Assembly (NCBI GenBank): GCA_037200005.1 | Contig: JBBCGY010000001.1 | Location: 42,416 to 106,415 of the forward strand | Origin: Alphaproteobacteria bacterium | GTDB taxonomy: Bacteria > Pseudomonadota > Alphaproteobacteria > UBA9219 > RFNS01 | Reading direction: 5' to 3' | Length of the DNA: 64,000 bases | Shown: one piece after another, positions 22,669 through 64,000 of the stretch | How the letters are laid out: each line of letters begins with the position of its first letter | Numbering within the stretch: the first letter of the stretch is position 1 | The notes under the pieces: generated by a model | What the model saw: only the letters and a program-made list of their open reading frames with translations | Database searches by the model: none | What the model was told of the DNA's origin: nothing | Made by a program: the position numbers and the translations under genes

Positions 22669-22700
22669 AGAATATGAGTGGAATTGAGGGAGTTAATGCA

Positions 22701-25776: not shown

Positions 25777-25843
25777 TCGCATTCAATATCCCGAATATTT
25801 CCAAAGCCATTTTTCGTCAATCTTATTCTCATGGAGGCATGTC

Positions 25844-29338: not shown

Positions 29339-29346
29339 CTTCTCCC

Positions 29347-46024: not shown

Positions 46025-46639
46025 TCAGTCAGCGCGCAAACGATAGCCGAAACGCACCTTCGCCGTCGCGTTTTCGGAACATTGCCCGGCGGCGGTGCCG
46101 ATGATCGCGGTCGGGTTGGGCGGCAAAGCGGTGATTGGGGCGTCATTGATCGAAGCCGCGGCAAGTCCGCGGGAAATTTCGCCCGGTGCTGTCGCTTTCA
46201 AGACCAGCGCGGCGCAGGCGGCAGGCGGCAGATTCAGGTAATCGACGGTGTATTGGAACGCTTCGGGCGCATCGCATCCCGCCGCGCCGGTTCCCGCCAC
46301 CGTTCCGCGCGTTACCGTCACCGCCGTGCCCCAGGGGCTGGAGATGTTATTCGCCTGCAGCATTTCGCGCGGGATGAGGGGCGGATTGATCGCCGTCAGC
46401 GTCGCCGTCAAATCGCCGGTCGCGGCGATGCAGGGCCGCTCCTGGTAATAAGTGCGGATATTCTTGTTGATAACGAGGAGTTGCTCGCCGGTCTGCTGAA
46501 GTTTTACCGAATCGCGCGTGCTGACGATCACCAGCCATACGCCGCCGAGAATTACGCCCGCGACCCCGAACACGATGGCAAGCTCGATGAGCGTCACCCC
46601 GGCGCAGAACTTTCTGGCTCTTAATCGATGCTGTTTCAT
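46025..46639 (-). CDS. type IV(b) pilin-like protein, paralog 3 of 3 (204 aa)
   Basis: Class III signal: MKQHRLRARKFCAG/VTLIELAIVFGVAG. Conserved NLPxxxC and C-terminal C...F.Y.L blocks are shared with the two upstream pilins. ATGA coupling. Confidence 0.75.
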   Translation of the reverse strand: MKQHRLRARKFCAGVTLIELAIVFGVAGVILGGVWLVIVSTRDSVKLQQTGEQLLVINKNIRTYYQERPCIAATGDLTATLTAINPPLIPREMLQANNISSPWGTAVTVTRGTVAGTGAAGCDAPEAFQYTVDYLNLPPAACAALVLKATAPGEISRGLAAASINDAPITALPPNPTAIIGTAAGQCSENATAKVRFGYRLRAD

Positions 46640-47304
46640 GACGGATTCAGCCTGAAGGCAAAATAAAGACGGTTGGCATTGGCGCTGGTGCAACTGGCGG
46701 CGAGCCAGGTAGGCGTAGGCGGCATAGGAGTGGCAATCGCGCCGGGAATGGCGGCGTCTCCCGTATCGACGCCGATACCGACCAAACCGACCTGATCCAT
46801 GACCCCCAACAATTTAGTGCCCAGATCGATGCATGCGGCTTGCGGCAGATTGCGCAGCATAATCGTAATGCCATAGCGGGGATTCACGTTGCCGAAGGCA
46901 TTGGCGACGGGGGAAGCGGACACGCAAATCGTACCGTCGCCGCAAATCGATCCCGCGCCGTCGGAACTCCAGGGATGGGCGAAATAGCAGGGCGCTCCCA
47001 GACCGCAAGTCTTCGGATCGGCATCGGGCGTCAATTTGGTTTCGGCGGGAAATACATCTTTCCTCGCGACCCTTTGCGTGAAAAGAATATAGTCCTCATC
47101 CGGCAAGATCGCCGCATTCGTATAAGCGTCGCGGACATTTTCCACGATCTGCTGCAATTGATCGACGGCGCGGTTGATGTTGTGATGATGGGCCACGGCG
47201 CGCGCGCCGAGCCATATGGCGCCCGCCAGCATGCCCGCCACGCCCAGCACGATCGCAAGCTCGATAAGGTTGAACCCGCGCTGTCGATGCGGCATGCGGC
47301 GCAT
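46636..47304 (-). CDS. type IV(b) pilin-like protein, paralog 2 of 3 (222 aa)
   Basis: MRRMPHRQRG/FNLIELAIVLGVAG prepilin N-terminus. Confidence 0.75.
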   Translation of the reverse strand: MRRMPHRQRGFNLIELAIVLGVAGMLAGAIWLGARAVAHHHNINRAVDQLQQIVENVRDAYTNAAILPDEDYILFTQRVARKDVFPAETKLTPDADPKTCGLGAPCYFAHPWSSDGAGSICGDGTICVSASPVANAFGNVNPRYGITIMLRNLPQAACIDLGTKLLGVMDQVGLVGIGVDTGDAAIPGAIATPMPPTPTWLAASCTSANANRLYFAFRLNPS

Positions 47305-47325
47305 TGTCCGTTCTCCATTCCCTGA

Positions 47326-48003
47326 TTACCGCAGCATAAACGCCCATTCCAGCGTCACCAGACCGCCCGCCGCCGCATTCTGGCATTCCGTGACCGCCTG
47401 CGTCGGATTAACCGGCAGGCTGGTCCCATTCGCCCACACCGTTCCCGCCGCCGTATAGGCCGTCCCGGCAGGGCCGCCGAATAGAACCGCCCGCAGCATC
47501 ATTTTCTGATCCGGCGCGGAGATGCGCGACGCGAGCGCGATACAAACGTCAACCGGCAAATTGGCATAACGCACGCCAAAACTTGTTTCGCCCGGCGCGG
47601 CGGCGGCGGCCGTATTCAGATCCTTGTCCATCGGCTCGACGACAACCGCTCCCCAATCATTGGCGGGCGGAGTGCCGGGCACGCCGCCGATCATGTCGCT
47701 CGGAAAAGCGCCCTGGCAGCTCAATTTGGCCGTCAAATCCGCAGGATTGCAGCCGCCAATCGGGCTGTTGTCATGATAAATTCCCCGCTGGCTGGTATAA
47801 ATGCCGCGCACATTGGCGACAATTTCGAACAGCTGTTCGCCCGCCTTGTTGATGGAAGTGGAGCGGCTCACCCGGCCCGCCGCGAACATAATCCCGGCGA
47901 CGACCATTCCAGCGACGCCCAGCACGATGGCGGCCTCGACCAAAGAGAAGCCGGAGAATGAGCGGCCCCGCCTTCTGTTTTTTTCTCTCCGGCTAAAATC
48001 CAC
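47326..48003 (-). CDS. type IV(b) pilin-like protein, paralog 1 of 3 (225 aa)
   Basis: GRSFSG/FSLVEAAIVLGVAG prepilin N-terminus. GTG start overlaps the pilR-like stop by 11 nt. Confidence 0.7.
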   Translation of the reverse strand: MDFSRREKNRRRGRSFSGFSLVEAAIVLGVAGMVVAGIMFAAGRVSRSTSINKAGEQLFEIVANVRGIYTSQRGIYHDNSPIGGCNPADLTAKLSCQGAFPSDMIGGVPGTPPANDWGAVVVEPMDKDLNTAAAAAPGETSFGVRYANLPVDVCIALASRISAPDQKMMLRAVLFGGPAGTAYTAAGTVWANGTSLPVNPTQAVTECQNAAAGGLVTLEWAFMLR

Positions 48004-49084
48004 TGCCGCCGCCCTTGCTCGAGTCGCTGATGACCACGGTGATATGCAGGATCGAGCTCATGGCGAAGGCGATGACGGTGCCGACCACGGCGAGGCCGAT
48101 ATTCCGCACCACCACCGACTGCGCCTTAAGCTCGTCGATCTGCTCCCTGATCCATTCCTGGGTCACTTCCTCGATCACCGAGCCGATATCGCCGCGCTCG
48201 GAGAGAATTTCCATGTCGAGCGCGACCTGCGGATCGGGGAAACCGTAATTGCCCTGGCGCAGCGCCTCGCCGAGATTCTTGCCCTGCAGCACCGCTTCGA
48301 CTGCCGACGCGATCCGCTCCTTGATCCAGGGATTGCCCTGCTGTTCCAGGATTTCCAGCGCGCGGCGCAGCGGCACCTGCGCGCCCATGAGCGCCGAAAG
48401 GCCGAGCATGAAGCCGCTGCCCTGCCAGATGCGGAACCACGACCAGGGCGGATATTTATCGAACTTCGCCCGCGTCTTGCCCCTCCAGAACGGCATCGTG
48501 ACCGAAGTGATGACGGCGAGCGTGCCGATCGACAAAAGAATGGCGATGCCCCATTTCATGATGAAATCCGACACGTCGGCGAGCGGCCCGATCGATTCCA
48601 GCACCGCTTTCGGCGCGTTCTTGCGCATATTCTGGATCAGGTTGACGCCGAACATCCACAAGACGCCAGAAATCAGGATGATCATGAAGGCGGGATAGGT
48701 GATCGCCTGCATGACGGCGGTGCGCATTTCCTTGGCGCTCTCGCCCATCATCATGATGGAACGCAGCGACTTCGCCACGGTGCCCGATTCTTCCCCGGCG
48801 CGGAGCATGTATAATTCCGCCGACGGCACCCATCCGGCCATCGCCTGCGAAAGCGAATCTCCCGCCCGGTCGCGCTGCAGCCATTCGCGCAGCGCCATCG
48901 CCGCGGGGCGATTCGGGTATTTGCCCATCTCGCTGGAATTGTACCAAAGCCGCTCCAAGGCGCGCGACAGCGCCTCGTTCATCGCCAGCATGCCCTGAAG
49001 CTTGCGATAGACGCGAAAGCGCATCTTCGTGTTGCTGCGGAATTTCCACATGGCGTAGGAGCGTGAGAACTCTGCGCTATTCAT
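47993..49084 (-). CDS. pilR: GspF/PilC-family pilus platform protein (R64 PilR-like)
   Basis: GspF-like repeats (LSQAMAGWVPSAELYMLRAGEESG; LGEALRQGNYGFPDPQVALDMEILSERG) with three TM segments. The start at 49084 (ATGA coupling) or 49090 is ambiguous. Confidence 0.75.
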   Translation of the reverse strand: MNSAEFSRSYAMWKFRSNTKMRFRVYRKLQGMLAMNEALSRALERLWYNSSEMGKYPNRPAAMALREWLQRDRAGDSLSQAMAGWVPSAELYMLRAGEESGTVAKSLRSIMMMGESAKEMRTAVMQAITYPAFMIILISGVLWMFGVNLIQNMRKNAPKAVLESIGPLADVSDFIMKWGIAILLSIGTLAVITSVTMPFWRGKTRAKFDKYPPWSWFRIWQGSGFMLGLSALMGAQVPLRRALEILEQQGNPWIKERIASAVEAVLQGKNLGEALRQGNYGFPDPQVALDMEILSERGDIGSVIEEVTQEWIREQIDELKAQSVVVRNIGLAVVGTVIAFAMSSILHITVVISDSSKGGGSGF

Positions 49085-51009
49085 CGCCATACACCGAGGC
49101 GCTGCTCGACTTCGGCGATCTCGCGTTCGCGGGCGAGCGGCCCGACCTCGACTTCGGCGTCGGCGGGAGAAACTTCGCCGCGGCGGATTTTTTCGAGAGC
49201 GTGCCAGGCCATCGTGATGCCATTCAGCCCATGGGGCGAAAGCCAGTATTCCTCGGCCTCGATGATCTTGCCCTCCTGGAGCAGATTCATCAGCTTGATA
49301 TCGGTTTCCGCTACCTCGGCGCAAACTGTGCGCCCGCTGCGCCCCTTGAAGCATTTCGGGCAGCCGTCGGGATTGGCGACGTAAATCTGGCTCATGTCAG
49401 GCTCCTCGATCCGGTCGAGGGCGGGCTGTCCCGGATCGGCCTTCATGCGGCGCGCGATCATCAGCGCGAGGCCGGTCCGCACCCGGCGCGCGAGGTCTTC
49501 GTAATCCGGCCCGAACTGCTTGGGCGCTTCCTTGATCGGAACGCGGCAAGAGGGGCACAGGCCCTTGAGCAGCCTTTGGCAGAACATGCCGCACAGCAGA
49601 TGCGGATCATAAATCAGATAAGGCTCGATGCCGAGATCGAGCAGGCGGCGCGGCACGGCGATCGCCGAATAGACGTGCAGCGTCGTGTAAATCTGCCGCC
49701 CGGAAAGCGCCAGGCGGAAGGCGAATTTGGCGGTCTGGATGTCGCGGATTTCGCCGAGCATGACGATGTCGGGATCGAGGCGCAGGGCGCTGCGCATCAC
49801 TTCCGAAAAGCTTTTCTCGCGCTGCTCTTCCTTGACTGACGCGGACACGCCGATCTGGCTCGCGCCCATCACGCCGCCTTCCGGCGGGTCTTCGATCAGA
49901 TAGCATTTGCGGTCGAAATTGGTTTCCACCATGCGCCGGTTGAGCATCACGCGCAGCGTCGTGGTCTTGCCTTGGTTCACCGGGCCGGAAAATATCCGCA
50001 TGCCGCCGGGCAGGCTGCGCAGGAAGCGCACCGTCTTGAGCTGTTCCTGGGAAAAGCCGATCGAATCGACATCCGCCATGGCGAAATTCTCGCCGAACAG
50101 ATGCGCCGAGTCATATTGCAGGCGCATATTGAGATAGCGCCCCCCGTCCGACAGCGGCACCCACTGGCAGCGCATCGACGGCACGCCGATCGGAAGCTGG
50201 ACGGATTCCTGACCGCCGGTTCCGGCCAGCATCGCCGCCTGCGGCTCGAGCCAGTTGGCGGTCGCGCCCGACTGGCCGATCGAATGCGAATAGACGGCGG
50301 ACAGAACCTGCTCGCCTTCGCGCTGAGTCCAGGTTTCCCACAGGCGCAGCGCGCCATCGACGCGGAACTCCACCTTGGCGCGGCCGCCCGCCGCCTCGAT
50401 GTGAATGTCGTTGGCGCCCATGTCGGCGGCCTGCTGGATCATCTCGACGATCTTGCGCCTGACGGCATTGTCGTCGAGGCGAACCATCGCCGCCTGGCGC
50501 TCGGCATAGGCATAGGCCTGCTGCACGATATTCGGGGTGACGTAATGCGGCTCGTCGACTTTATAGCCTTGCCGCCGCGCCTGCAGCGCCACCGAAGTGA
50601 CGAGCGGCGAATTGCGGTGCGCGGCGCTGACCAGCCACATGCCGTTATCGAACAGCGCGCAGAAATTGCGCGACTCGGCAGTGATTTTGAGCGTGCTGCC
50701 CTCGACGGTCAGCACCAGGCCGGTGAATTTCAGCGCCCCGGACAGCGCCATCGAGCGCTCGTCAACGATCTTGATCTGCTGCTGCGCCGCAATGGCGGTT
50801 TTGGCCGCGTTATCCGCGCCCGAGGACGCCGCCTTGCCCTGCGCGGACGGCGCTTGATCGGGGGATGGCGGGGCTTCCGGCGGAGGGGACGGCGGCGCAA
50901 CGGCTCCCTTGGCCGGCGCGGTCAGCTCTCCGGACTTCGGCGCTGGTTTCGACGCCTCCGGTGCCTTATTGATAAGTTTGCGGGTGCGGTCGGCGAGATC
51001 GGACAGCAT
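49081..51009 (-). CDS. pilQ: GspE/PilB-family secretion ATPase (R64 PilQ-like) with Pro/Ala-rich N-terminal extension
   Basis: Walker A GPVNQGKT, Walker B/Asp box DIVMLGEIRD, His box TTLHV. Tetracysteine CPSC...CPKC. Confidence 0.85.
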   Translation of the reverse strand: MLSDLADRTRKLINKAPEASKPAPKSGELTAPAKGAVAPPSPPPEAPPSPDQAPSAQGKAASSGADNAAKTAIAAQQQIKIVDERSMALSGALKFTGLVLTVEGSTLKITAESRNFCALFDNGMWLVSAAHRNSPLVTSVALQARRQGYKVDEPHYVTPNIVQQAYAYAERQAAMVRLDDNAVRRKIVEMIQQAADMGANDIHIEAAGGRAKVEFRVDGALRLWETWTQREGEQVLSAVYSHSIGQSGATANWLEPQAAMLAGTGGQESVQLPIGVPSMRCQWVPLSDGGRYLNMRLQYDSAHLFGENFAMADVDSIGFSQEQLKTVRFLRSLPGGMRIFSGPVNQGKTTTLRVMLNRRMVETNFDRKCYLIEDPPEGGVMGASQIGVSASVKEEQREKSFSEVMRSALRLDPDIVMLGEIRDIQTAKFAFRLALSGRQIYTTLHVYSAIAVPRRLLDLGIEPYLIYDPHLLCGMFCQRLLKGLCPSCRVPIKEAPKQFGPDYEDLARRVRTGLALMIARRMKADPGQPALDRIEEPDMSQIYVANPDGCPKCFKGRSGRTVCAEVAETDIKLMNLLQEGKIIEAEEYWLSPHGLNGITMAWHALEKIRRGEVSPADAEVEVGPLAREREIAEVEQRLGVWR

Positions 51010-51015
51010 AATATC

Positions 51016-51855
51016 TCACGGCGCCCCGCGCCCATGGCTTAAAGCGCCGGCATTGTCGATGCGAAGGCTGTGCTCGTTTTTATCGCCCGGAGATTTAAGT
51101 TGAACCGTCGTGGCGTCGATGAGCTGGACTTCGGTGCCATCGGCGAGCTTGTCGCCGGCGCGCACATTGATCGTCTTGCCGTCCTGCGCAGAATCCAGAT
51201 CGGCGCTGTATCTTCCGCCGGCGCCGACGATCTTGTGCACTTCATAATCCGCGGGCGAAACGGCCGATGGCGTCCGGCGCGGCGCGGAAGCCGAGGCAAG
51301 CTCGGTCACCGGCACGGCCAGAGAGGCCTTTTGCATTCCCCTGGGCATTTTCGTGACGCCGGAGGGCAGCATGGCGCCGACTTCGCTCGCCATGTCGTCC
51401 CCGCCCTCGCGCTTGGCGCGAGCTTTTTCGAGATCATGCATTTTCTGCTCGAGTTCCAGCAGAAGATCGAGGCGCGCCAGCGCTGCGCGCGCCTGATTCA
51501 TGTCTTCGAGGCTGAGATCGATTTTTCCCGTCTCGAGCTTTTTCATCACGCTTTTAACCTGATCGGGAATTTCCTTGTCTTCGCCGGTCCCATCAGTCGC
51601 ACTAGCCGAAGCGGCTTTGGTTTCCTCGGTCGTCCCTACTCCCGGGCCGCCGGGAGGATGGGCGAGATTGATTCCGCCGCCGGGCTGTCCCGCCTGCGCG
51701 GGGATCGATGGCGCGGCCGATGATGCGGCGCCCGTCATGGCAGCGGTATGGGCGACGGCGAGATCGGTTACGGTCGTTTGGGCAAAAGCCATGGAAGACG
51801 CGGCGCCGAGGGCCAGCACAAAGGCCGGAAACCAAGATCTAAAGGCAATTCTCAT
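51016..51855 (-). CDS. pilP: PilP-like type IVb pilus biogenesis protein
   Basis: SD AGGAG. Signal peptide MRIAFRSWFPAFVLALGAASSMAFA. The C-terminal block YEVHKIVGAGGRYSADL...VRAGDKLADGTEVQLIDATTVQL fits the PilP family pattern. Confidence 0.6.
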   Translation of the reverse strand: MRIAFRSWFPAFVLALGAASSMAFAQTTVTDLAVAHTAAMTGAASSAAPSIPAQAGQPGGGINLAHPPGGPGVGTTEETKAASASATDGTGEDKEIPDQVKSVMKKLETGKIDLSLEDMNQARAALARLDLLLELEQKMHDLEKARAKREGGDDMASEVGAMLPSGVTKMPRGMQKASLAVPVTELASASAPRRTPSAVSPADYEVHKIVGAGGRYSADLDSAQDGKTINVRAGDKLADGTEVQLIDATTVQLKSPGDKNEHSLRIDNAGALSHGRGAP

Positions 51856-52129
51856 CCTACACTCCTTCGACCAGCCAGGGATCGTCCGATCGGTCAAACT
51901 TCTGATAAAGCCCCCAGGATCGGAGGCCCCATACCTAATCTGGGAAGTCGGTTCATCATCGGCGAATAGGGTTAAGTTCCCGTAAACATAGGCTTTATGA
52001 ACCTCGTGCCATTAACGAATGGTTATCGCCCTGCGGCAAGGCGTCAGTTTTGAAATCGGGCATGGAGGGGGATTGGCCTTCATGTCGGCCTAGACGCGGC
52101 GCGGCGCGGCGGCAGGGCGACAAAAAGCG

Positions 52130-53386
52130 TTATTTTCTGTTTTCGTAGATCACGCCGCTGATCTGCCAGCTTCCGCTCTGCGAGACGATGCTGTTGATGA
52201 TAACGCCGGGAACGCCGCCGAAATATTGCGGCAATTCGCCTGGTAAATCGGTAACCTTCAGCGTGAATCCGCGCTTGATCCAGGGCGTAGGCGGCGGATT
52301 CCAGTCTTCCGGCCGCACATTTTCCGGTTTCGGCGGCGGCGGATCGTCAGGCAGGCGCGAAATCGTGCCGTTCCAGTTCTGCGCCAGATAGCGTTTGGTG
52401 ATTTCCGCCGGATCGATCAAATCCTGGGGGCCGCGATTTTTCAGGCCCTCGATCGGCACGCCGCGCGAAGCGTTCGACCCCGATGGATCGATGGAGGCAT
52501 CGGCAAGGGGCTGAGTGTAGCCGACGATGCGGGTCCATGACAGCGACAGGCCGCCCTTCGCGCAACTTAATGTGCTAAGATTCCATCCCAGCCTCGCCTG
52601 CGGCACCTTGTCCAGCGCGACGCGGCACGCCTCTATCAATTCCAGAGGATGAGGCTCATCCTCCCAGAACCGCTTCGGCGGCGGATACGCGATCTGAATC
52701 GGACCGCCGAGACCCGCCGCTTTCATTTCGATCGCACGCTTCTGGGCCTCGATCCTGATCAATTCCCTTTGCGCTTCCTGCGCTTTTTCTTCCTGGTATT
52801 GGTAATACCAGAATCCCGCGATACCCAATACGACGACGAGCGCCGTGACGGCCACGCCGATAAGGATCGCGCGCGGTATCTTGACCGGCTGCAAGGGGCA
52901 GTCGCCGCGATTTTGCAGCACGAAGGGAAGCGCGACCGTTTCCGAAGCGGGAATCGACCATGCTTCAGGAGCATAGATGCGCTGCAGGCCGCCAAGCGTG
53001 ACTTCCTGGATAAGACGGTCGCGGGCGCTGGCGTCATCGAGATATATCTGGTCACCGTCCGGCGCGATCAAATCGTCGCGCACCACGATGACCACGATGC
53101 CTTCGCTTAACTTGAAGGCGCCCGCCCATGAACCCGGCAGCCGGTTGGCAAGCGACGCGGCCAAGGTCGCCATGCCGAGCTTGTGGCCGGATTGCTGAAG
53201 CCCCAGACCGAACTGGGCGACGCGGCCGCCCTTGACGCCGGGACGCACCGCAAAAAAGTCGGCGTGCTGGCCCGGCTGGCGCGCCGCCTCTTTAGCCGCT
53301 TGCGCGACACGGCCGCTCGGCGAAGGCTGCCAATAGAGGCCGACCGCGTATTTGCGCCGTCCGACTGTCGCGACGCCAGATCCCAT
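52130..53386 (-). CDS. pilO: PilO-like (PilO2-type) type IVb pilus biogenesis protein
   Basis: The N-terminus YAVGLYWQP... and a single mid-protein TM (ILIGVAVTALVVVLGIAGFWYY). Its position lies between the secretin and PilP. Confidence 0.6.
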   Translation of the reverse strand: MGSGVATVGRRKYAVGLYWQPSPSGRVAQAAKEAARQPGQHADFFAVRPGVKGGRVAQFGLGLQQSGHKLGMATLAASLANRLPGSWAGAFKLSEGIVVIVVRDDLIAPDGDQIYLDDASARDRLIQEVTLGGLQRIYAPEAWSIPASETVALPFVLQNRGDCPLQPVKIPRAILIGVAVTALVVVLGIAGFWYYQYQEEKAQEAQRELIRIEAQKRAIEMKAAGLGGPIQIAYPPPKRFWEDEPHPLELIEACRVALDKVPQARLGWNLSTLSCAKGGLSLSWTRIVGYTQPLADASIDPSGSNASRGVPIEGLKNRGPQDLIDPAEITKRYLAQNWNGTISRLPDDPPPPKPENVRPEDWNPPPTPWIKRGFTLKVTDLPGELPQYFGGVPGVIINSIVSQSGSWQISGVIYENRK

Positions 53387-53388
53387 TA

Positions 53389-53651
53389 GGGTCCAACCTT
53401 AATTAGAATGGGGTTTCGCGCAGGCGAAAAAGCCGCCCGGCTACGAAAAGACAGAAGCAGGTATCGGCGACTACCTGCGAGGTCTTTGAGAACGCCGGTC
53501 GGCTTTTTCGCCGCGCCCCTTGGGTATGCAAAAGAAGGCCGATCTGCGTTGTCGGCTTCGCTCGCCGTAGATTGACTACGGCTTCGCTCGCCTCCTAGCA
53601 TCTCAGCCTTCTTTTGCATACGAAACTCCCATTCTAATTAAGGTTGGACCC
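53389..53651. mobile_element. MITE-like non-autonomous element (263 bp) with TA target duplication
   Basis: The terminal inverted repeats (TIRs) GGGTCCAACCTTAATTAGAATGGG / CCCATTCTAATTAAGGTTGGACCC match over 26 nt counting the flanking TA, and over 32/33 with one gap. TA flanks the element at 53387-88 and 53652-53. Nested internal IRs: 53423-35/53500-12 and 53524-39/53606-21. There is no coding capacity. Confidence 0.75.
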
Positions 53652-55219: not shown

Positions 55220-55270
55220 CCAAGGCTAATTGAGGCGCGAACCTTATGACTTAATTGTTAACATTGGCTT

Positions 55271-56713
55271 TCATTCTCCGCCGCTGTTGCCGCGCGTTTC
55301 GATCACCAGAATTCTCTGCCCCGCGGTCGGATTATCATGCAAGCGCCCGAAAGGCTGCGGCTTGGCGTCGACAAAACCGCTAAGCAGATTGCGCACGGCG
55401 TCTTCGAACGAGCCGGAGAAATTCACGCTGGCCTGAATCGGATAGTCATATTCGGTCGCCCATACCAGTTCGACATTGGCGCGCTCGCTCCACTTTTTGA
55501 TGACGGCGCGCAGCTGATCACCCGGTTCGGCTTTCCACGCTTCCGCCGGAGCGGCTTGCGTCGCAGGCGTGAGGGGACTCGGTGTCACGACGGAGCCCGT
55601 TACCGGCGGCGCATCGGACGGCGGCGCGGCGGTAATAGGCTGAACCGCATCCACCGCATCTTTCGCGGGAGGCACGGAAGCCGGCGCGGGCTCAACCGGC
55701 GGCAAGGGTGGCGGGGCATCGGCGGCAAGCGCGGGCGCGGCGGCCGCGGCAATCATCGAATCATCCACGACCGGCGGCAGCGCGGCAGCCGTAGCCGGCG
55801 TTTCCAGCGGCGGCAGAGGCACCATCATGGCCTCGGGGGGAGCACCCGCCACAGGCGCGGGCATATCGGAGCCGGCCGGCGTTGCGGCAGCGGCCGCCGA
55901 AGGAACAGGCGGCGCCTCGGTGGGCAACTCGGCTACCGGCAAAGGCGCGGGAACTTCCAGCGGAGCGGCGGACGCTGCATGCACCCCTGTTTTACCGCCC
56001 AGACCCGCGCGGGCAATTTTGACGATTTTACCCTCTTCCTGGGCCGACAGCCCCGCGCCCGTCAGAGCATCATTCAGCACCGTCCGCCAAGGCTTGCCGC
56101 CCTGCCAGTCGACCGACGTGGAATTGTCTATTCCCTGCTCCAGCGCAAAACCGTAATCCGGCGGCAAAATCTGTTTGAGCGCGACCGTAAGCGGAATCTT
56201 CTTGCCAAATCCCACAATGGCCGGCCCTTGGTCAACCGGAAGAGGAGGCGGGACATCGGCGGCAAGCGTGGGCGCCAATTCCGGCGGCGGGACGGATAGC
56301 GGCGCAGACGGCTCTATCGGCGACGGCTCTATCGGCGGCAAGGGCACCGGAGAAGCAACGGCAGCCATAGGCTCAAGCGGCAATGGCTCCATCGGCGCCA
56401 AGGCTTGCGGCGACGATGCCACAGGAGAGGCGGCCGCCGGGGGGCTTACTTCCGGCAATTGCATGGGAGCGGGCAAAGCGGCCTGATCGGCAGGCGCTGG
56501 CGCAAGCGGAACTGCCGGCACATCCTCGACAGGAGCGGGAACGGGCGCGGGTGCAAGCGGAACCGCGGCAGGAGCCTCTTCAAGCGGCGTGACCCACTGA
56601 AACCCGGCCTGGGCGGTGCCGCACATAAGCGTAACGCCGATGATGCCTAATGCGAGACTGAGCAAGAGACGATGTTGTCGGGCAAACCAGGCCATGAGCG
56701 AACACTTCCGCAT
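55271..56713 (-). CDS. PilL-like protein: signal peptide, long Pro/Ala-rich regions, two TcpQ-like domains (480 aa)
   Basis: Signal: MAWFARQHRLLLSLALGIIGVTLMCGTAQA. The C-terminal block WKAEPGDQLRAVIKKWSERANVELVWATEYDYPI resembles the TcpQ/PilL C-terminus. A second similar block is VALKQILPPDYGFALEQG. Confidence 0.5.
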   Translation of the reverse strand: MRKCSLMAWFARQHRLLLSLALGIIGVTLMCGTAQAGFQWVTPLEEAPAAVPLAPAPVPAPVEDVPAVPLAPAPADQAALPAPMQLPEVSPPAAASPVASSPQALAPMEPLPLEPMAAVASPVPLPPIEPSPIEPSAPLSVPPPELAPTLAADVPPPLPVDQGPAIVGFGKKIPLTVALKQILPPDYGFALEQGIDNSTSVDWQGGKPWRTVLNDALTGAGLSAQEEGKIVKIARAGLGGKTGVHAASAAPLEVPAPLPVAELPTEAPPVPSAAAAATPAGSDMPAPVAGAPPEAMMVPLPPLETPATAAALPPVVDDSMIAAAAAPALAADAPPPLPPVEPAPASVPPAKDAVDAVQPITAAPPSDAPPVTGSVVTPSPLTPATQAAPAEAWKAEPGDQLRAVIKKWSERANVELVWATEYDYPIQASVNFSGSFEDAVRNLLSGFVDAKPQPFGRLHDNPTAGQRILVIETRGNSGGE

Positions 56714-56762
56714 AGGAGGGATAAAACCGATTCGTGATTCATACTACGTTATAGTCAGTCCG

Positions 56763-56962
56763 CTTGAAAACCCGAAAAAACTCCGTCGCGCCTACCCCGT
56801 CATTAAGGAGGAAACCCATCGCGAGCGCGACATAGATTTTTCGGATTTTTAGGCGGACGTCATCCACATCACTTGAAAACCCAAAAAATATTCTGTCGCA
56901 TCCGCATGGCTTTACTGCTTGGGGGAGAACGATGGCGACGGAATATTTTTTGGGTTTTCAAG
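56763..56962. repeat. three copies of a 27-28-nt motif CTTGAAAACCC[GA]AAAAA..T.C.GTCGC (two direct, one inverted)
   Basis: Copy A at 56763-56789, copy B at 56872-56899, copy C (inverted) at 56935-56962. B and C match 27/28 and are separated by 35 nt. Confidence 0.8.
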
Positions 56963-57115
56963 CCAAGTAACTATAGGAAATAGCCGGAAAAGCGCCATGA
57001 GAAAACAACAATTTTCGACTTTTCCCCAGAAGCAGGCGTGACATGGGTGCAACGGACGGTGAACAACAAAGATTAACGGATAGATAAGCGGGAAACAAAC
57101 CGCTCGATAGCGGCT

Positions 57116-57427
57116 TTATGAAGCGGTTTCGTCGCTCTCTTCCTGCGCCCGGGCATCTGCGGCGCCATAATCGGTCATGCGCCGCCGCAAAAGACGGATT
57201 GTTGCCGGACGCTCTTGGCCAAGAACCCAGCAGCGCAGGGCGCGCAGCGCCGACTCGAAGCTCAAGCCGCGCTGCTCGACGGCCCAGAAGATCAAAATCG
57301 TGATGACGGTCAGCGTCAAGGTCCAAAGCTGGATATACATCAAGCAGGCCAGAACCACGAAAAAAAGCCGCGCGTCAAAGATAAAGAAGCGGGCGATTTT
57401 CTGACTATTGCGCCAATGATCATCCAT
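57116..57427 (-). CDS. icmT: IcmT/TraK family small membrane protein (T4BSS)
   Basis: HWRNSQKIARFFIFDARLFFVVL followed by a second TM fits the IcmT/TraK pattern. It lies directly after the dotB-like gene. Confidence 0.65.
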   Translation of the reverse strand: MDDHWRNSQKIARFFIFDARLFFVVLACLMYIQLWTLTLTVITILIFWAVEQRGLSFESALRALRCWVLGQERPATIRLLRRRMTDYGAADARAQEESDETAS

Positions 57428-57513
57428 AATTCAGACTCCAGATGTCGGTGATCGGAAAGGGCAACGCGCGCCCTATCCGCCGGTTTCGGATAACTGGCAA
57501 CCGGTATTCGACT

Positions 57514-58743
57514 TTATACGTCCGTCGTTACGGTATCGTTAACGGCTTGCGTCGCCAAAGGCTCGAAATTCTGGTCTTCCCGTTCGTCGCCGGAGAAGCC
57601 CTTGGTAAGCAGCAGATACCAGCGGCGATCGATCAGCCCCGCCTTGAACGCCGATGTCGCCGATTGTTCCATGGTCTTGCCGTAGCGCACGAGCAAACGC
57701 TGGGCCTCGCTGGTCCAGCGCTCGATCGGCATATCAAGCAGAATTTCGCGGACATTCTCGTCAAAGATCATGAATTCGCGCAATCCCATGCGGCCGCCGC
57801 CGACTTTAGGCACGAGCGCCTGCGTGACGATCATGCGCAGCGTTTCCATCAGGGCGAAAGCGCGCTCGGAACGCTCGGAGGGCTCAAACACGCTGACCAT
57901 GCGTCGAATGGTGGCCGCCACCCCGGTCGTATGGGCCGTGGAATAGACCGCGTGGCCGGTTTGCCCTGCCTCAATGGAGGCCGAGACCGTTTCGCGATCG
58001 CGCGATTCGCCGACCAGGATAATGTTGGGCTTGCGGCGCAGCGCGTTGCGCACCCCGGCCGCGAAATTAGGCAAATGCTTTGGGATTTCCGATTGCGAAA
58101 CCAGCGACCGCTCGCCGACGATCGAATCGTACACATATTCGATCGGGGCTTCATAGGTCAGCATCTTGCCGCAGCCCTGAGCCCGCTCGATCAGCATCCG
58201 GTTGCCCGCGGCAAGCAATGTCGATTTGCCGCTGCCGGTCGGTCCCGTCACCAGGATCAGCCCCTGGCGCGGCGCCCAATTATCGATGATTTTTTCCTCG
58301 ATCCCCAGTTCGTGCATCGTCGGGGGAAGATTGGGCAGCGACCGCATGGTGATCTGCACCCCGTCCCGCCCTCTGCTCAGCATGGCCGTGATGTTGACGC
58401 GAAAACGGTAACGCGTGTTGCGATCGGGCCTAACCTCGTAGGACAAATCGAGATCGACGCCCGACGCAAGCTTGGCGATAGCGTCCTGGCCGTAAATTTT
58501 GGCCAGGACATTGGCCATATCCGCCGAATCGATCGATCGCCTGGTTATCGGAAACAGGACGCCGTCGACTTCGATATAAACCGGGCGGTCGGTTTGAATG
58601 CTGACGTCGGTGGTGCGCCGCTCGACGCACCACATCAGCAGGCCGTCGACATGCTCTTCGCGAATGCGCAAAGGCTCATCGGTCCAGGTTCCAAGCTCTT
58701 CGCTTTTGCGCCTGGCATCCGCTAGCGTAGCGTCGACTGCCAC
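57514..58743 (-). CDS. dotB: DotB/TraJ-type (PilT-like) T4BSS ATPase
   Basis: Walker A GPTGSGKST, Walker B ILVGESRD, TAHT His box. Synteny dotD-dotC-dotB. GTG start overlaps dotC by 22 nt. Confidence 0.8.
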   Translation of the reverse strand: MAVDATLADARRKSEELGTWTDEPLRIREEHVDGLLMWCVERRTTDVSIQTDRPVYIEVDGVLFPITRRSIDSADMANVLAKIYGQDAIAKLASGVDLDLSYEVRPDRNTRYRFRVNITAMLSRGRDGVQITMRSLPNLPPTMHELGIEEKIIDNWAPRQGLILVTGPTGSGKSTLLAAGNRMLIERAQGCGKMLTYEAPIEYVYDSIVGERSLVSQSEIPKHLPNFAAGVRNALRRKPNIILVGESRDRETVSASIEAGQTGHAVYSTAHTTGVAATIRRMVSVFEPSERSERAFALMETLRMIVTQALVPKVGGGRMGLREFMIFDENVREILLDMPIERWTSEAQRLLVRYGKTMEQSATSAFKAGLIDRRWYLLLTKGFSGDEREDQNFEPLATQAVNDTVTTDV

Positions 58744-59549
58744 TGTTCGCTCCGCGGAATAAGCGTGGATTGGCCGGTGATGGTAACGCCCCGGTCGCCG
58801 ATGCGCATTTCGGCGCCTCCGCCCGTGATGCCGCGATCCTCGTGAATCGCGAAGGGCGGAGAAATCATCCCCTGCGCCAGCAATTCACGGTAATGCACCA
58901 TGCCGACGAAATCGCTCGTCATGCGATCGAGATCGGCCTCGAAAGTATCGTCCGCCTGAATCACGCCGGCGTCCCACCCTTCCTTGACCCATTTGCGCCA
59001 ATCGGCGCGCTCTTCCTTGGTCTTGGGCACCAGGAGGCCCGGCGGCGGCTCCACTTTGCCCCAATCGCGCTCCAGATACAGGCGCCAGTCGCGCGAGGCC
59101 GTGACGATGCGGGCGATGCGATTGATGCGGATAATCCGGTCGGCAACGGCAGCCTTTTGACCGCCGCCGGTCACGATCACGGCGCGCTGGGCGTCCGAGA
59201 CGATCGGCGGCTCGATCAAAAGCCCCGAAGGAGCGTTAATGAGCAGCCTTTTGAAATCGAAAGTTTTGCTGAGGGTCGCTTCCTGTTCGGCAAGACGGCG
59301 CTGGATTTCAAAAGTGCGGTGGGCAAGGCCGCCGCGAGCGCCGTATGAAAGGGCCGCTTCGCGCAGCGCGTCATGACGGATTTGAAGCCCCATATTCTCG
59401 CTGGGCTTGGCGTTGACGCCTTCCGTCTGTTCCTGCAGCTGCCACAGATCGGGAGGCGGTTCGAGCGGCCCGACTGGCGTGCTGTCGGCCCACGCCGGCA
59501 TTGCCGCCAACAACAGCAGTCCGATCACGATAGCGGAAAGCCTGCGCAT
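58722..59549 (-). CDS. dotC: DotC/TraI family T4BSS outer-membrane-complex protein
   Basis: Signal peptide MRRLSAIVIGLLLLAAMPAWA. Its size and position between the DotD-like and DotB-like genes fit. The ATG lies 1 nt after the dotD stop. Confidence 0.6.
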   Translation of the reverse strand: MRRLSAIVIGLLLLAAMPAWADSTPVGPLEPPPDLWQLQEQTEGVNAKPSENMGLQIRHDALREAALSYGARGGLAHRTFEIQRRLAEQEATLSKTFDFKRLLINAPSGLLIEPPIVSDAQRAVIVTGGGQKAAVADRIIRINRIARIVTASRDWRLYLERDWGKVEPPPGLLVPKTKEERADWRKWVKEGWDAGVIQADDTFEADLDRMTSDFVGMVHYRELLAQGMISPPFAIHEDRGITGGGAEMRIGDRGVTITGQSTLIPRSEQWQSTLR

Positions 59550-59550
59550 T

Positions 59551-60072: not shown

Positions 60073-60153
60073 CGATCCCTGTCGATATCGGAAGTCAAGG
60101 GGCGATTCTGTTTTAAGCACAAGCACAGCCAAAAACCAAGCCCTAAACCGACA

Positions 60154-60214
60154 TAGAGCGCGATCATTCCTCAGTGAAGTGTGTCTGCGCGTCCATGGGG
60201 ATGATCGCGCTCTA
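60154..60214. promoter_or_regulatory. 14-bp perfect inverted repeat between orf99 and dotD
   Basis: TAGAGCGCGATCAT (60154-60167) and ATGATCGCGCTCTA (60201-60214). Confidence 0.3.
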
Positions 60215-60217
60215 GCT

Positions 60218-60517
60218 CTAAGTCCTGAAGCGCATGAAGAACATCGCGTAGCCGAACAGCGCTCCGGCAAGAAGCAGAAGCAGAAGGCCGTTGAGCCACA
60301 CGCCGTTAATAAGAAAATAAAGCCCGAGCGCCGCGATCACGGCGGACGCTATGCCGTAAATCACCGTCGCATTCGGCATGGCGCCCTGCTTGGGCGGCGG
60401 GCTGGCCGGCCCCGACGGCACATAGGGAGAAACCGTCTGCCCGTTTCCCGGGGCCTGCAACGATTTGCCGCCGCCTATGGCGGGAACGGCGGGCGGCTTC
60501 TCTGAATCACGGGCCAT
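60218..60517 (-). CDS. small 2-TM membrane protein (99 aa), T4BSS-associated hypothetical
   Basis: Pro-rich N-terminus followed by two hydrophobic helices. Located in the operon. Confidence 0.5.
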   Translation of the reverse strand: MARDSEKPPAVPAIGGGKSLQAPGNGQTVSPYVPSGPASPPPKQGAMPNATVIYGIASAVIAALGLYFLINGVWLNGLLLLLLAGALFGYAMFFMRFRT

Positions 60518-60549
60518 GGATCACCTCTTCCCCGCATTGCCGATGATCG

Positions 60550-61536
60550 TCATGGCGACAGATCCGACAGGATGGTGGCGACCTTGTCAGGCTTCCCGAG
60601 CACGACTTTGATCTTGCCGTCCTTGCCGCGATAAACAATGTAGGGCGTCGCGGAAATTTTCCATTCCTTGGTCATCTCCATGGTCGCCCGCACCGCCGTA
60701 ATATCGGCGGTGGGCGGCACGCCGGCAAGAGCGTTGGCATCGCCATCCACGAACTGGCTCCAAGCCTTGAAAGGCTCGGCCACGCGCAGGAATATTGCAG
60801 ACTGGCGCTCGTCTTCGCTGTCAGGCGCGCCGATGGGCAGTAATTTGACGCGCAGCTCTCCCTTGTCGACATGATCCTTGAGTTCTTTCCATGTCGCCTT
60901 GCAGAAGGGGCAATGGGGCTCGACCAGCATTACCACGAGCGGCTTGTCGCCTTGGCCCATGGTCACGCCCACCGCTCCCTGGAAATCCTGATAGAGTCGC
61001 TCGCCGGGCGACAGGGACACGAGTTCCGGCGGTCCACTTTTCGACGCAGGCTGCGGGTCACTGCCGCCACCGCCGCCCACCTTTTGAATTTCTTCCTGTT
61101 TTTCTGCCGCCGAAGTCAGCAGCGCCTTGATCTGGGGTATCTGCATGCCGACCGTATTCATTTGCTCGGCGGTAATATTGGTGCCCTCGGCCGAGAACAT
61201 CGCGCCGAAAAGCAATGACTGGCGATCGGGAGCGATATAGAAAAACTGAAGCTGCCCGTCTTTCTGCAGCATGAAGCCGGGCATGCCGGAACGCTCGCCC
61301 ATATAATAAAGCTCGGCGCCTTGCTGCAGCATCGTACGCAACACCGGTATCCTCTTGATATCCACATCGGTCGCAGGCATCTGCTGCGCCTTGGCGATCT
61401 CCGCCGGATCGGCCTTGAGCAGGGCGCCCACCGGTATTTGCGAGGATTTCTGGGCCGCCGCTGGAAACGCAAAAAGCGCAACCGCCAGAGTCAAAGGAAA
61501 AAGCCGCTTTGTCAGGGATTTCATCGTCATGGTCAT
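60550..61536 (-). CDS. periplasmic thioredoxin-fold thiol:disulfide isomerase (DsbC/TrbB-like)
   Basis: Signal peptide. CPFC active site inside a thioredoxin-like C-terminal half. Conjugation-operon context. Confidence 0.7.
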   Translation of the reverse strand: MTMTMKSLTKRLFPLTLAVALFAFPAAAQKSSQIPVGALLKADPAEIAKAQQMPATDVDIKRIPVLRTMLQQGAELYYMGERSGMPGFMLQKDGQLQFFYIAPDRQSLLFGAMFSAEGTNITAEQMNTVGMQIPQIKALLTSAAEKQEEIQKVGGGGGSDPQPASKSGPPELVSLSPGERLYQDFQGAVGVTMGQGDKPLVVMLVEPHCPFCKATWKELKDHVDKGELRVKLLPIGAPDSEDERQSAIFLRVAEPFKAWSQFVDGDANALAGVPPTADITAVRATMEMTKEWKISATPYIVYRGKDGKIKVVLGKPDKVATILSDLSP

Positions 61537-62021
61537 TCGTCCACCTTGGCTATTTTAACGTTCCGATTCTCGGCTCCCGCCGCTGATTTCGGCGGCGGAT
61601 TTGCGGCGTATAACTCGTGCGCCACCAGCCCCTTATGCTCCATCACATCGATGACTTTGCCAGCATATCGCCCGCCGCGCCAGGGGGTAGCGGAATGATA
61701 ACGCGCGATACCGCCGCGCAAATAACCCGCTTCATCGATTTTCTGCCGCAGAATCCAGGCGGAAACATAAACATTGACGCAGCCGTTATCGCGCACCCAT
61801 TGCCGCGCGGTGCCGCCATCCACGCCCCACAGCCGCGCCAATTGCGGCATCCATACCGTGTTGACTTGCATCGGGCCTAAATCGTAGCTGCCATTGGTAT
61901 TATGGACTTCCTGGCCCACGCGGCCGCCCTCGACATGCATCATGGCAATCATCACCGCCGGCGGTACATGATAGGTTTGAGCGGCGAGCAGCAGGCATGC
62001 TGCGATCATTTGCGAAGTCAT
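61533..62021 (-). CDS. lytic transglycosylase (SLT domain; VirB1 / R64 PilT-like)
   Basis: MHVEGG catalytic Glu context, GPMQVN, YN/YH motif region. ATGA coupling to the next gene. Confidence 0.75.
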   Translation of the reverse strand: MTSQMIAACLLLAAQTYHVPPAVMIAMMHVEGGRVGQEVHNTNGSYDLGPMQVNTVWMPQLARLWGVDGGTARQWVRDNGCVNVYVSAWILRQKIDEAGYLRGGIARYHSATPWRGGRYAGKVIDVMEHKGLVAHELYAANPPPKSAAGAENRNVKIAKVDE

Positions 62022-62025
62022 GGCG

Positions 62026-62907
62026 TTAGCTCCATCCTTCTTCTTCCAGCTTGGCGGCAGACGGCACCTCTAGATAAGTGCCCAGCGTCGCAAGCAGCGC
62101 CATGCGCTGGTTGAATTCTTGCCATACTTGGGCCATCGGCACAACATTGCCGTGCTTGGCGAAATAGGCCGCGCGATCATCAGGATTCATGTAAAGCAGC
62201 CGGTCCGCCTCGGCATAATGGCTATCGGCATAAATCTGCCCCGCGGATTTCAGAACCGCCCAGCACAGCAGCCGCCATTGCTCCGGGCTGGCCCCGGCCG
62301 GCGCCAGCGAACGCGTAATCTGATCGGCGGTTTTGACGAGCCGCTCCGCCACCTCGGCAAGCAAACCGTGCTCGCCGCGCCCGAAAGAATATTGCGAGAT
62401 GGCGCCAACCACGGGCACCAGCGTCTCCAGCATTTTGGCGCGAAAAGTCGCCACTTGATTGGGGACAGGCTCGATGCCGCCGGTCACAAGGTTCTTGAAT
62501 TTTTCCGGCAGCGCGCCAATGACCGCGAGAATCGGCTCGGCCGCGCCCGCATCAAGCATATGTCCCGTTGCCCGGTAATTGGCCGCGACCAATTGACAGG
62601 CGGCGCCGATAGCGCCCCAGCGCAGAGCGGCGGGGGCGGCCGCGCCCTCCATTTTATCCGCCATCTGGCGCGCTAAATTGGCGGCATTTTCGATCAGAAG
62701 CGGAAATGCCTCAAAATTCGCTTTACGGGTTGCGCCGGCGCCGGCCGCGTTGCGGTCTTGCTGGCCGGCTTCCAGCAACGCCGTCAATAAGGGCGTTCCG
62801 ACAAGACGCAGCGCCGCCGCCAGCGTTTGCATGCGCTGACCGGCGTCAATTTCGCTCTGTGCTCCCGCACTATCCATGAATAAAATCCAACCGGCATCGC
62901 CAGCCAT
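62026..62907 (-). CDS. hypothetical protein (293 aa), T4BSS-associated
   Basis: Intact Ala-rich helical ORF, co-directional and 4 nt from the next gene. No motif recognised. Confidence 0.5.
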   Translation of the reverse strand: MAGDAGWILFMDSAGAQSEIDAGQRMQTLAAALRLVGTPLLTALLEAGQQDRNAAGAGATRKANFEAFPLLIENAANLARQMADKMEGAAAPAALRWGAIGAACQLVAANYRATGHMLDAGAAEPILAVIGALPEKFKNLVTGGIEPVPNQVATFRAKMLETLVPVVGAISQYSFGRGEHGLLAEVAERLVKTADQITRSLAPAGASPEQWRLLCWAVLKSAGQIYADSHYAEADRLLYMNPDDRAAYFAKHGNVVPMAQVWQEFNQRMALLATLGTYLEVPSAAKLEEEGWS

Positions 62908-62996
62908 CCTGGGATGAACACGCCATAGCTTTCACGAAAACGGTTAACACTTGCCTTATGCCATGACAAGAAGTCATTAAGAAAACTAAAAGCGCC

Positions 62997-63971
62997 TTAC
63001 ATGCCCTTGGATTTCGACGCGGGGCCGGGGACGGTATATTTCACCCGCCGCGGGCCGGACTCGTTTTCGACCTTGATCGGACTGGCGACGCCCTCCGTAA
63101 AGTCCTTGCTGATACTGTCAACGCCGATGACAAACTGATTGAAAGTCGCCCGATAGGTTTCGTCCCGCTGTTCGGCTATGCTTTTAAGCTGGTTGCATTG
63201 CGCCAAAACGGCGGTTTTGACTGAGTCGGGACCGGTATCGGCCTCGAAGCTGTGATTGTTTTTGCAAAAAACAATATCGCGGTAATGCTGCAAGAGGGCT
63301 TGGCTCACATATGTTCTCGGATCGGGAGTGCCATCGCCGTCGATATCTTCACCCACCACCGCGTTACCGTTGCTGTCATAAGCCTGGAATATCTTCTGGT
63401 CATAGCCCGACTTGACCATATTATAGCCGATACGGATGCCATTCTCGCCGATGGAATTGGCTTTCATCAGCGGGTCGCCGACGGCGAGCTTCGTGCCGTC
63501 GGCAAGCTTGCCGTCGGGATCGGGAGCGGTGCGCCGCGCAATTTCATCGTAACAGGTGCGAATAAGCGTGCTGACCTTATCGAGCGTGCTGAAATTCTTC
63601 ATGATCACATGCACATTTTTCGGATCCATCGCCCTATCGCCGGTGATCGTATTCGGCTGGATCGCTTGAAGCTCGATATTTTGGCAAAAACGCACGGCCG
63701 ACACATACAGTTTCTGCTTGTCCGTCATGGAGTCCCACGCGCCCTTGGCCGAACCGGTCCACTTCGTGCAGGGAGAGTTGGGAATGGTGCTATCATAAGC
63801 ATCGGGACTATCGAGGCAGGTCATCTGCTCCGCGCTCGGCTGAACCATAACCAAATTGGCGAGAATGGTCGAAGGCTTGACGAAAGCGTGGGCAAAAGCA
63901 GGGTCCTCGAAGCAGGGATTGGCGGCGCTTCCCATGGCATTCCACCACTTCATGCCGAAATCGCCCTTCAA
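62997..63971 (-). CDS. hypothetical Cys-containing protein; 5' end may lie beyond the window
   Basis: The reading frame stays open from 63971 to the window edge. The listed start is TTG and the first ATG is at 63953. No motif recognised. Confidence 0.45.
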   Translation of the reverse strand: MKGDFGMKWWNAMGSAANPCFEDPAFAHAFVKPSTILANLVMVQPSAEQMTCLDSPDAYDSTIPNSPCTKWTGSAKGAWDSMTDKQKLYVSAVRFCQNIELQAIQPNTITGDRAMDPKNVHVIMKNFSTLDKVSTLIRTCYDEIARRTAPDPDGKLADGTKLAVGDPLMKANSIGENGIRIGYNMVKSGYDQKIFQAYDSNGNAVVGEDIDGDGTPDPRTYVSQALLQHYRDIVFCKNNHSFEADTGPDSVKTAVLAQCNQLKSIAEQRDETYRATFNQFVIGVDSISKDFTEGVASPIKVENESGPRRVKYTVPGPASKSKGM

Positions 63972-64000
63972 AAACTGTCCGTTCTTGCATAGCCTCTGCA

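Follow-up and report, generated by a model that had tools for sequence, protein, structure and literature searches.

The 64,000-nucleotide stretch of alphaproteobacterial DNA analyzed here, called the window throughout, raises the question of why type IVB secretion system (T4BSS) genes should stand joined to a type IVb thin-pilus operon among housekeeping genes, and whether such an array belongs to a conjugative element, to the remains of one, or to the host itself. Along the minus strand, starting at 64000 and ending at 46025, the profile searches give the order hypA, hypB, a lytic transglycosylase (SLT), a thiol:disulfide isomerase of the Dsb type with a CPFC motif, a small peptide with two transmembrane segments (sm99), DotD, DotC, DotB and IcmT, continued by PilL, PilN, PilO, PilP, PilQ, PilR and three type IVb prepilins, and then by nhaA (Table 1). 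On balance, and with considerable doubt still attached, we favor the reading that the array is a chromosomal Dot/Icm-type T4BSS locus, a long-standing trait of an uncultured alphaproteobacterial lineage, which would work with its cognate pilus as a domesticated, non-conjugative effector system.

The case for an inherited trait comes from the relatives of this locus. A scan of one genome per GTDB species returned 59 species-level loci with DotC at 53-76% identity, all of them in metagenome-assembled genomes (MAGs). A tblastn table and a map of open reading frame (ORF) clusters revealed a near-universal block composed of hypA-type genes, one to six of which adjoin hypB on its upstream side in almost every related locus, followed by hypB, SLT, (Dsb), sm99, DotD, DotC, DotB and IcmT. 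In about 30 loci the genes PilL-N-O-P-Q-R and the pilins come next after IcmT, as in the window, and in about nine loci without adjacent pil genes the place is taken instead by oppA-like, truB, ruvC, ruvA, ruvB, ybgC, tolQ, tolR and tolA genes, which provide a second, clearly core-chromosomal context. Because at least 59 species-level genomes carry the block, about 30 of them with the pilus joined to it, the array looks to us like an inherited trait of the lineage and not like a piece of a mobile plasmid. The carriers are titled Alphaproteobacteria, Micavibrio, Bdellovibrionales (under which NCBI places Micavibrio), Rhodospirillaceae, Rhodospirillales, Rickettsiales, Pseudomonadota or uncultured proteobacterium, and they include a 1.64-Mb record that bears the title 'chromosome: 1'. 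The protein collection held 1874 DotC homologs, the best 120 of which are 61-100% identical (one is the window's own and the rest lie at 61-81%); among these 120, every source-given name is a metagenome or MAG label, and JGI names the proteins DotC.

The affinities of DotB point in the same direction. A DotB phylogeny had been proposed as a check in the first-pass annotation, and in the neighbor-joining tree obtained the MAG sequences form one clade, sister to Legionella DotB and apart from the plasmid ATPases. Loci without adjacent pil genes are nested among pil-linked forms within this clade, and for that reason the pil linkage looks ancestral. The NCBIfam and PDB scores agree with the placement, since the best NCBIfam model for the window protein is the DotB model TIGR02524 (404.9 bits, curated cut-off 463.3), ahead of the TraJ model TIGR02525 (229 bits, cut-off 368, so that the TraJ equivalog level is not reached) and the PilT family (225 bits), and the match to L. 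pneumophila DotB (PDB 6geb) scores 358 bits. DotB is 47.6% identical to its L. adelaidensis counterpart, 35.8% to that of pBIND01, 33.5% to that of a Roseomonas plasmid and 29.6% to IncI TraJ, values that do not support the label 'IncI-type' first given to these genes. For DotC the corresponding values are 37% (L. adelaidensis), 39.5% (pBIND01), 41% (Roseomonas plasmid) and 31% (IncI TraI), and the match to L. pneumophila DotC (6x62) reaches 143 bits.

The surroundings of the array are those of a chromosome. The window matches exactly a part of contig JBBCBH010010965.1 (1,828,711 bp) of MAG GCA_037975565.1, where the array occupies about 800-821 kb and the housekeeping genes pepN, upp, cca, rsmB and nhaA flank it. 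Downstream, the last pilin is followed by nhaA, by genes for a Gfo/Idh/MocA oxidoreductase, for glycosyltransferases and for a thioesterase, and then by pepN, pagL, upp, the gene of the CCA-adding enzyme and rsmB; the stop of that pilin (46025) is separated from the likely GTG start of nhaA by about 49 nt, as had been reported at first. GC content at third codon positions (GC3) is 0.71 in the T4BSS genes and 0.74 in the pil genes, against 0.77 in the neighboring core genes and 0.54 in a tRNA-Lys island of the same window, and the composition of the array is host-like by this measure. Megablast of the 18-kb array against a collection of 72,556 plasmids gave no match. The chromosomal location and the host-like composition described in the first-pass annotation are thus both upheld.

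Further parts of the machine are found in the relatives. A second locus there has the order DotG (with a TrbI domain), a protein weakly resembling DotF, one resembling TraQ/DotE, DotN (120 bits, where the NCBIfam cut-off is 100), a protein of 993 aa that takes the place of DotO and whose VirB4-family match is marginal and far under the cut-off (E=0.0025), DotM (DotM_C domain; 96 bits to 6sz9_B), a protein of 157-173 aa, DotL (427 bits to L. pneumophila DotL, 6sz9) and a glycosyltransferase of family GT4. This second locus adjoins dotDCB in one relative (L065) and lies 135 kb away on the same 823-kb contig in another genome, and a third relative (L053) has a 1072-aa DotA homolog near dotD. By analogy, DotG, DotF, DotE, DotN, DotO, DotM, DotL and DotA would be expected elsewhere on the window's own chromosome. 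Searches of the source genome reached about 72 kb of the 1.83-Mb contig. In the window, tblastn with IncI PilU and PilM, with a MOBF relaxase and with the relatives' DotL, DotM, DotN, DotO and DotA found no match, in accordance with the early remark that a prepilin peptidase, a relaxase and DotA, DotL, DotM and DotO are not in it. The one MOBF relaxase used as query also had no match in the 8 kb beyond the window or in more than 60 related loci, MOBP-type relaxases not being part of the search, and the Pfam tables of about a dozen related loci contain no relaxase domain. Apart from the machine itself, the GT4 glycosyltransferase (GT4-conflict domain) stands directly after dotL in L065 (12577-13626) and L066 (12460-13494), with a Wzy_C protein following in L065, and a similar GT4 gene is located at 42670-43824 of the window, some 2 kb downstream of the pilus genes. 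Surface glycosylation might be linked to the T4BSS.

Comparison with characterized systems shows what is shared and what is particular to this lineage. With Dot/Icm of Legionella and Coxiella, the window has in common the dotD-dotC-dotB order, the chromosomal location and the housekeeping flanks (compare L. adelaidensis), and its relatives have in common with them DotL, DotM, DotN and DotA distributed over several loci, with no relaxase seen. However, icmT belongs to region II in Legionella and follows dotB here, the type IVb pilus operon, SLT, the Dsb isomerase, hypB and the hypA arrays are attached here, and the host is alphaproteobacterial instead of a member of the Legionellales. The loci examined yielded no IcmS, IcmW, IcmQ, IcmR or IcmX. 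The plasmid pBIND01 of Beijerinckia indica, which carries a mating-pair formation system of type I (MPF-I), presents the same series DotD-DotC-DotB-IcmT, continued there by a hypothetical gene and an SLT, but a type IV coupling protein (T4CP) and a MOBF relaxase follow this block and a pil operon is missing.

For the IncI1 plasmids, an IncI-gamma/K1 plasmid was compared, standing for R64. Its order is pilI...pilM-N-O-P-Q-R-S, pilT (SLT), pilU (peptidase), the shufflon region and rci, and directly after these traE-F-G-H-I-J-K. The series traH-traI-traJ-traK corresponds to DotD-C-B-IcmT, the pilL-N-O-P-Q-R-S order is shared, and an SLT (PilT in IncI) belongs to the system in both, as does, in R64, the DsbC-like protein TrbB. 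The first-pass annotation had regarded the pil and tra blocks of R64 as separate regions, which the IncI order contradicts: since pil adjoins traH-K there, the dot-pil neighborhood is common to IncI and only the order is permuted, with pil upstream of the tra block in IncI and downstream of dot in the window. Unlike IncI, the window is chromosomal, has a Legionella-like DotB and clade-specific accessory genes, and resembles its IncI counterparts at identities of only 26-31%; pilM, pilU, the pilV shufflon and rci were not found, and hypA and hypB had no profile match to TraE, TraF or TraG. An IncI1/R64 transfer system is not what was found here, given a 1.83-Mb contig with housekeeping flanks, no plasmid megablast match and no match to the MOBF query (NikB was not searched).

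Previous reports give this system little place. According to a 2024 review, T4BSSs are confined to Legionellales, Piscirickettsia and some Francisellaceae (PMC11338181). In a survey by Needham et al. 2022, pT4SSi calls, that is, relaxase-less type I T4SSs detected by TXSScan, are listed for seven marine Micavibrionales genomes without description (PMC9418006), and these calls probably represent the same system in the same broad lineage. Literature on Micavibrio or Micavibrionales together with Dot/Icm or a T4SS yielded nothing beyond these survey calls, so that a survey hit is all that is on record of the system; its attached pilus operon, its accessory genes, its synteny and its occurrence in 59 species appear undescribed in the searchable literature. 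As to the first-pass view that such a chromosomal copy would be unusual, the trait is common within the lineage, and the Micavibrionales calls had already been listed.

An opposite explanation of the array is that it represents the edge of a large integrative and conjugative element (ICE), or an integrated MPF-I plasmid of IncI-like type, still conjugating and using the thin pilus for mating as R64 does. We consider this very unlikely. It is true that the dotD-C-B-icmT arrangement of MPF-I occurs overwhelmingly on conjugative plasmids (3213 of 3727 plasmid matches to DotC were typed conjugative), that IncI plasmids too link pil to traH-K, that GC3 of the T4BSS genes falls slightly under that of the core, and that the flanks vary among close relatives (L002, L003 and L004). 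However, no integrase, relaxase, T4CP or repeat was seen inside the array or in the 8 kb past 64000, where tandem hypA paralogs, one unrelated ORF upstream of these and no further dot gene are found, and neither side of the array showed the hallmarks of an ICE, namely a relaxase, an integrase and att repeats at a site such as a tRNA. The sole integrase (25691-27031) lies in the separate low-GC island, with 19 kb of core genes between that island and the array. In addition, the block is kept in 59 species, the relatives' dot/icm genes are split over chromosomal sites as far as 135 kb apart, DotB groups with Legionella and not with the plasmid ATPases, and hypA and hypB had no tblastn match in the 72,556 plasmids. 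Of the two possibilities that the first-pass annotation had left side by side, the evidence fits an old, domesticated chromosomal copy and does not support one edge of a large ICE. Still less credible to us is the notion of a decaying relic, with dotDCB-icmT left over from a lost system and the pilus alone, or nothing, still working. Four core T4BSS genes are visible in this genome, and neither a peptidase nor DotA, DotL, DotM or DotO is in the window, as would suit a relic, but all genes are full length when set beside homologous ones, identity of DotB across most species is 71-88%, which makes it as conserved as RuvB, and the remaining components are carried by relatives.

A more serious rival, which we judge unlikely but worth keeping in mind, holds that the pilus and the T4BSS are functionally independent neighbors, the pilus serving adhesion, aggregation or predation and the adjacency reflecting shared IncI-like ancestry only. 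Between icmT and pilL lies a spacer of 402 nt that has a repeated motif of its own, dotDCB-icmT stands without adjacent pil genes in about nine relatives, one of which (L058) has pilQ-pilR elsewhere in the locus, and Dot/Icm of Legionella runs without such a pilus. On the other hand, about 30 species-level genomes have retained the linkage although their flanks are extensively rearranged, dot and pil proteins correlate in their pairwise distances (Mantel rho 0.27-0.67) as strongly as dot proteins do among themselves, and the homologous IncI pilus is a dedicated accessory of the same type of T4BSS. Some points also weigh against the reading that we prefer, an inherited Dot/Icm-type effector system with its own pilus. 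What suggests functional coupling of pilus and T4BSS is the linkage of their genes. The remaining dot/icm genes, and a relaxase if there is one, would lie beyond the 72 kb or so covered, and pilus maturation would need a gene outside the window, because a prepilin peptidase is not encoded in it. The scores of DotB, DotD and PilN are best matches that stay under the NCBIfam curated equivalog cut-offs, and the DotB tree is a neighbor-joining tree without support values that includes one Legionella and three plasmid sequences. DotB distances follow those of TruB (rho 0.82, p=0.004, n=7) and RuvB (rho 0.94, p=0.015, n=5), whose genes lie adjacent, but DotC distances show no correlation with flanking housekeeping genes, and taken together these results give modest support for vertical descent. 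Finally, not every member of the Micavibrio group has the trait, since the cultured M. aeruginosavorus ARL-13 was reported to have no T4SS (PMC3189940).

Table 1. Features of the secretion and pilus array, in minus-strand order from the window edge
Feature	Positions	Strand	Remarks
hypA, C-terminal 333 aa of a 517-aa secreted Cys-rich protein	62997-64000	-	Frame open to the window edge
hypB, 293 aa, cytoplasmic, all-helical, uncharacterized family	62026-62907	-	Always directly upstream of SLT
Lytic transglycosylase, SLT/TrbN-like	61533-62021	-	TrbN 2.2e-24; IagB 1.5e-10
Periplasmic thiol:disulfide isomerase, DsbC/DsbG/TrbB-like	60550-61536	-	Thioredoxin_2 6e-06; DsbG 1.9e-25; HCPFC; signal peptide
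sm99, 99-aa peptide, two C-terminal transmembrane segments	60218-60517	-	Conserved in most loci covering the position
DotD/TraH lipoprotein, 173 aa	59551-60072	-	PF16816 7e-27; lipobox LAAC
DotC/TraI lipoprotein	58722-59549	-	PF16932 3e-72
DotB hexameric ATPase	57514-58743	-	TIGR02524 best NCBIfam model
IcmT/TraK, 103 aa	57116-57427	-	PF28014 (IcmT_2) on the source-contig gene; aligns with IcmT_2 of relatives L002 and L005
icmT-pilL spacer, 402 nt	56714-57115		Probable promoter region of the pil operon
PilL-like lipoprotein	55271-56713	-	C-terminal TcpQ domain PF10671 2e-15; Pro/Ala-rich linkers
PilN type IVb secretin	53651-55207	-	TIGR02520 239.7 bits (best match; cut-off 287.65); Secretin domain
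PilO	52130-53386	-	PF06864 4e-25, full length
PilP-position periplasmic protein	51016-51855	-	Signal peptide; same position in 23 loci
PilQ assembly ATPase	49081-51009	-	T2SSE 5e-53; 28% identity to IncI PilQ
PilR platform protein, 365 aa	47993-49090	-	T2SSF 1.8e-25; start overlaps pilQ stop
Type IVb prepilin, first of three paralogs	47326-48003	-	
Type IVb prepilin, second	46636-47304	-	
Type IVb prepilin, third	46025-46639	-	

The gene calls and family assignments of the first-pass annotation were reproduced with profiles across the array, as was the dotD-dotC-dotB-icmT order, with PilP as the exception, for which the profile search gave no match and the assignment follows from position, signal peptide and conservation. 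Its assignment of an IcmT-like protein was right, but the ORF chosen for it (56958-57326) was in the wrong frame and overlaps the true gene, whose product is 37% identical to IcmT of pBIND01. DotD reaches 81.6 bits with NCBIfam NF033882, under the cut-off of 140, and the SLT is 39% identical to the SLT following icmT on pBIND01 and 24% to IncI PilT. The spacer between icmT and pilL is probably the promoter region of the pil operon. Within it, at 56763-56962, are three copies of the 17-nt TTTTTYGGGTTTTCAAG, where 0.18 would be expected; two are direct, and the third (56946-56962) is inverted, giving a perfect palindrome pair of 21 bp with a spacing of about 70 nt. The motif is not present in the corresponding spacer of relatives, and for lack of conservation we claim no regulatory role for it. 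The distance between the stop of dotB and the start of pilL, with icmT inside, was measured in 29 relatives and is 212-1447 nt, which leaves room for a non-coding spacer after icmT.

The pilus genes form a complete-looking type IVb assembly operon in the order pilL-N-O-P-Q-R-S of the R64-like thin pilus that had been proposed, with pilM not found. PilN, PilQ and PilR are 26-28% identical to their IncI counterparts, PilN being at 26-27% from IncI PilN and likewise from BfpB. The prepilins have long, basic leaders whose ends read G|FSLVE, G|FNLIE and G|VTLIE, G occupying position -1 and E position +5; the first prepilin matches Bundlin (1.5e-05, 25.8 bits, cut-off 22.3), the third matches PilS (3.4e-05, 24.3 bits, cut-off 22), and N_methyl matches were obtained with the second and third. 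A PilV shufflon adhesin and rci were not found at the pil locus, where nhaA directly follows the third pilin, and the sole tblastn match of the rci query in the window was the island integrase region at 26.3 kb. An ORF at 53386-53619 is probably not a gene, as it has no homologs and is not conserved.

The genes upstream of dotD include families with no described function. The first-pass annotation was right in calling a gene at the window edge, but the edge cuts it, and the complete protein has 517 aa. The gene closes a tandem series of five hypA paralogs that occupy the window-equivalent positions 62997-70955 (L072 1067-9025), each encoding a protein of 501-557 aa with a Sec signal and many conserved cysteines, at 31-71% mutual identity. 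They are homologous to the families c7, c18 and c19 found upstream of hypB in nearly all relatives (hhalign probability 98.5%). HypA had no sequence match in Pfam, NCBIfam or PDB, and its AlphaFold2 model was poor (pLDDT, the model's confidence measure, 36) and unusable for a fold search. HypB is present in 38 loci and in 247 representative clusters among 1.84 billion proteins; its AlphaFold2 model is a helical repeat with a pLDDT of 90.5, and no informative match was found in Pfam, NCBIfam, PDB or among structural neighbors. Identification of hypA as IcmX or TraW, and of hypB as TraE, TraF, TraG, IcmW or IcmV, was dismissed, as the profiles gave nothing significant. A weak match of sm99 to the Legionella IcmV profile (E=0.002 in a set of 37 sequences) is suggestive of a relation between the two and no more. 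These three are uncharacterized T4BSS-linked families and candidates for new machine parts or substrates.

Two observations in relatives concern possible cargo. At 3780-6077 of L062, a 765-aa protein in the hypA position carries a C-terminal peptidoglycan-hydrolase domain like that of the type VI secretion protein VgrG3 (PF21277, 1.5e-19), and its N-terminus shows weak similarity to the hypA superfamily (hhalign 83%); the VgrG3-like domain hints at antibacterial cargo. In L033 and L044, which have no adjacent pil genes, a pentapeptide-repeat protein of 427-534 aa follows icmT at about 11.9-13.6 kb and looks effector-like, judging by its sequence.

At the far side of the core genes, positions 1-27187 of the window form the separate low-GC island (GC about 0.50), which ends at tRNA-Lys (27112-27187) with the integrase, of the tyrosine type, adjoining it. 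Its cargo comprises a type I restriction-modification system with hsdR apparently split in three ORFs (8504-11680), a Fic/SoFic protein and an SprT-like protein. The segment 14821-23489 encodes a 1793-aa Rhs-repeat protein and a 455-aa Sel1-repeat protein, and after these an Rhs fragment (21475-22668) and a second Sel1 protein (22674-23489), a layout resembling an Rhs toxin locus that includes an orphan toxin/immunity module. Beside the island, a two-component cluster (27361-31860) encodes two response regulators, the first with an EAL domain, and a hybrid histidine kinase that has an Hpt domain.

If the array is an inherited effector system, its working can be pictured as follows. DotD and DotC, both outer-membrane lipoproteins, would form the secretion module together with the ATPase DotB and with IcmT, helped by the genes upstream of them: a lytic transglycosylase breaching the peptidoglycan, the DsbC/G-like isomerase, the two-transmembrane peptide, hypB and the secreted, cysteine-rich hypA array. 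The pilus may fasten the cell to its target, either a prey bacterium or a eukaryotic host, and the T4BSS, presumably lacking a relaxase, would then move proteins into the target cell as in Legionella and Coxiella instead of conjugating DNA. The dot-pil neighborhood would have been inherited from an IncI-like ancestor, and the result would be an intermediate form with Legionella-like machine proteins and a retained thin pilus. A bolder version, which we offer as speculation and find doubtful, takes the lineage as an evolutionary intermediate between IncI conjugation machines and Legionella effector translocators, with the pilus, the T4BSS and the hypA array acting as one contact-dependent apparatus of attack or attachment directed at prey bacteria or protist hosts. 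The adjacent Dsb isomerase might then service the disulfide-rich hypA array, and the hypA paralogs might be modules of target specificity or effectors, in a role like that of the PilV shufflon in R64.

Dot/Icm is commonly regarded as characteristic of Legionellales and of a few further intracellular Gammaproteobacteria (PMC11338181). The window and its relatives show a machine closely related to Dot/Icm as a conserved trait in the chromosomes of a widespread and uncultured alphaproteobacterial lineage with small genomes, of which some members are labelled Micavibrio, and the IncI-like thin pilus has been retained with it. This bears on the origin of effector-translocating T4BSSs from conjugation systems, and also on the lifestyle of the carriers, which may involve predation on bacteria or association with protists.

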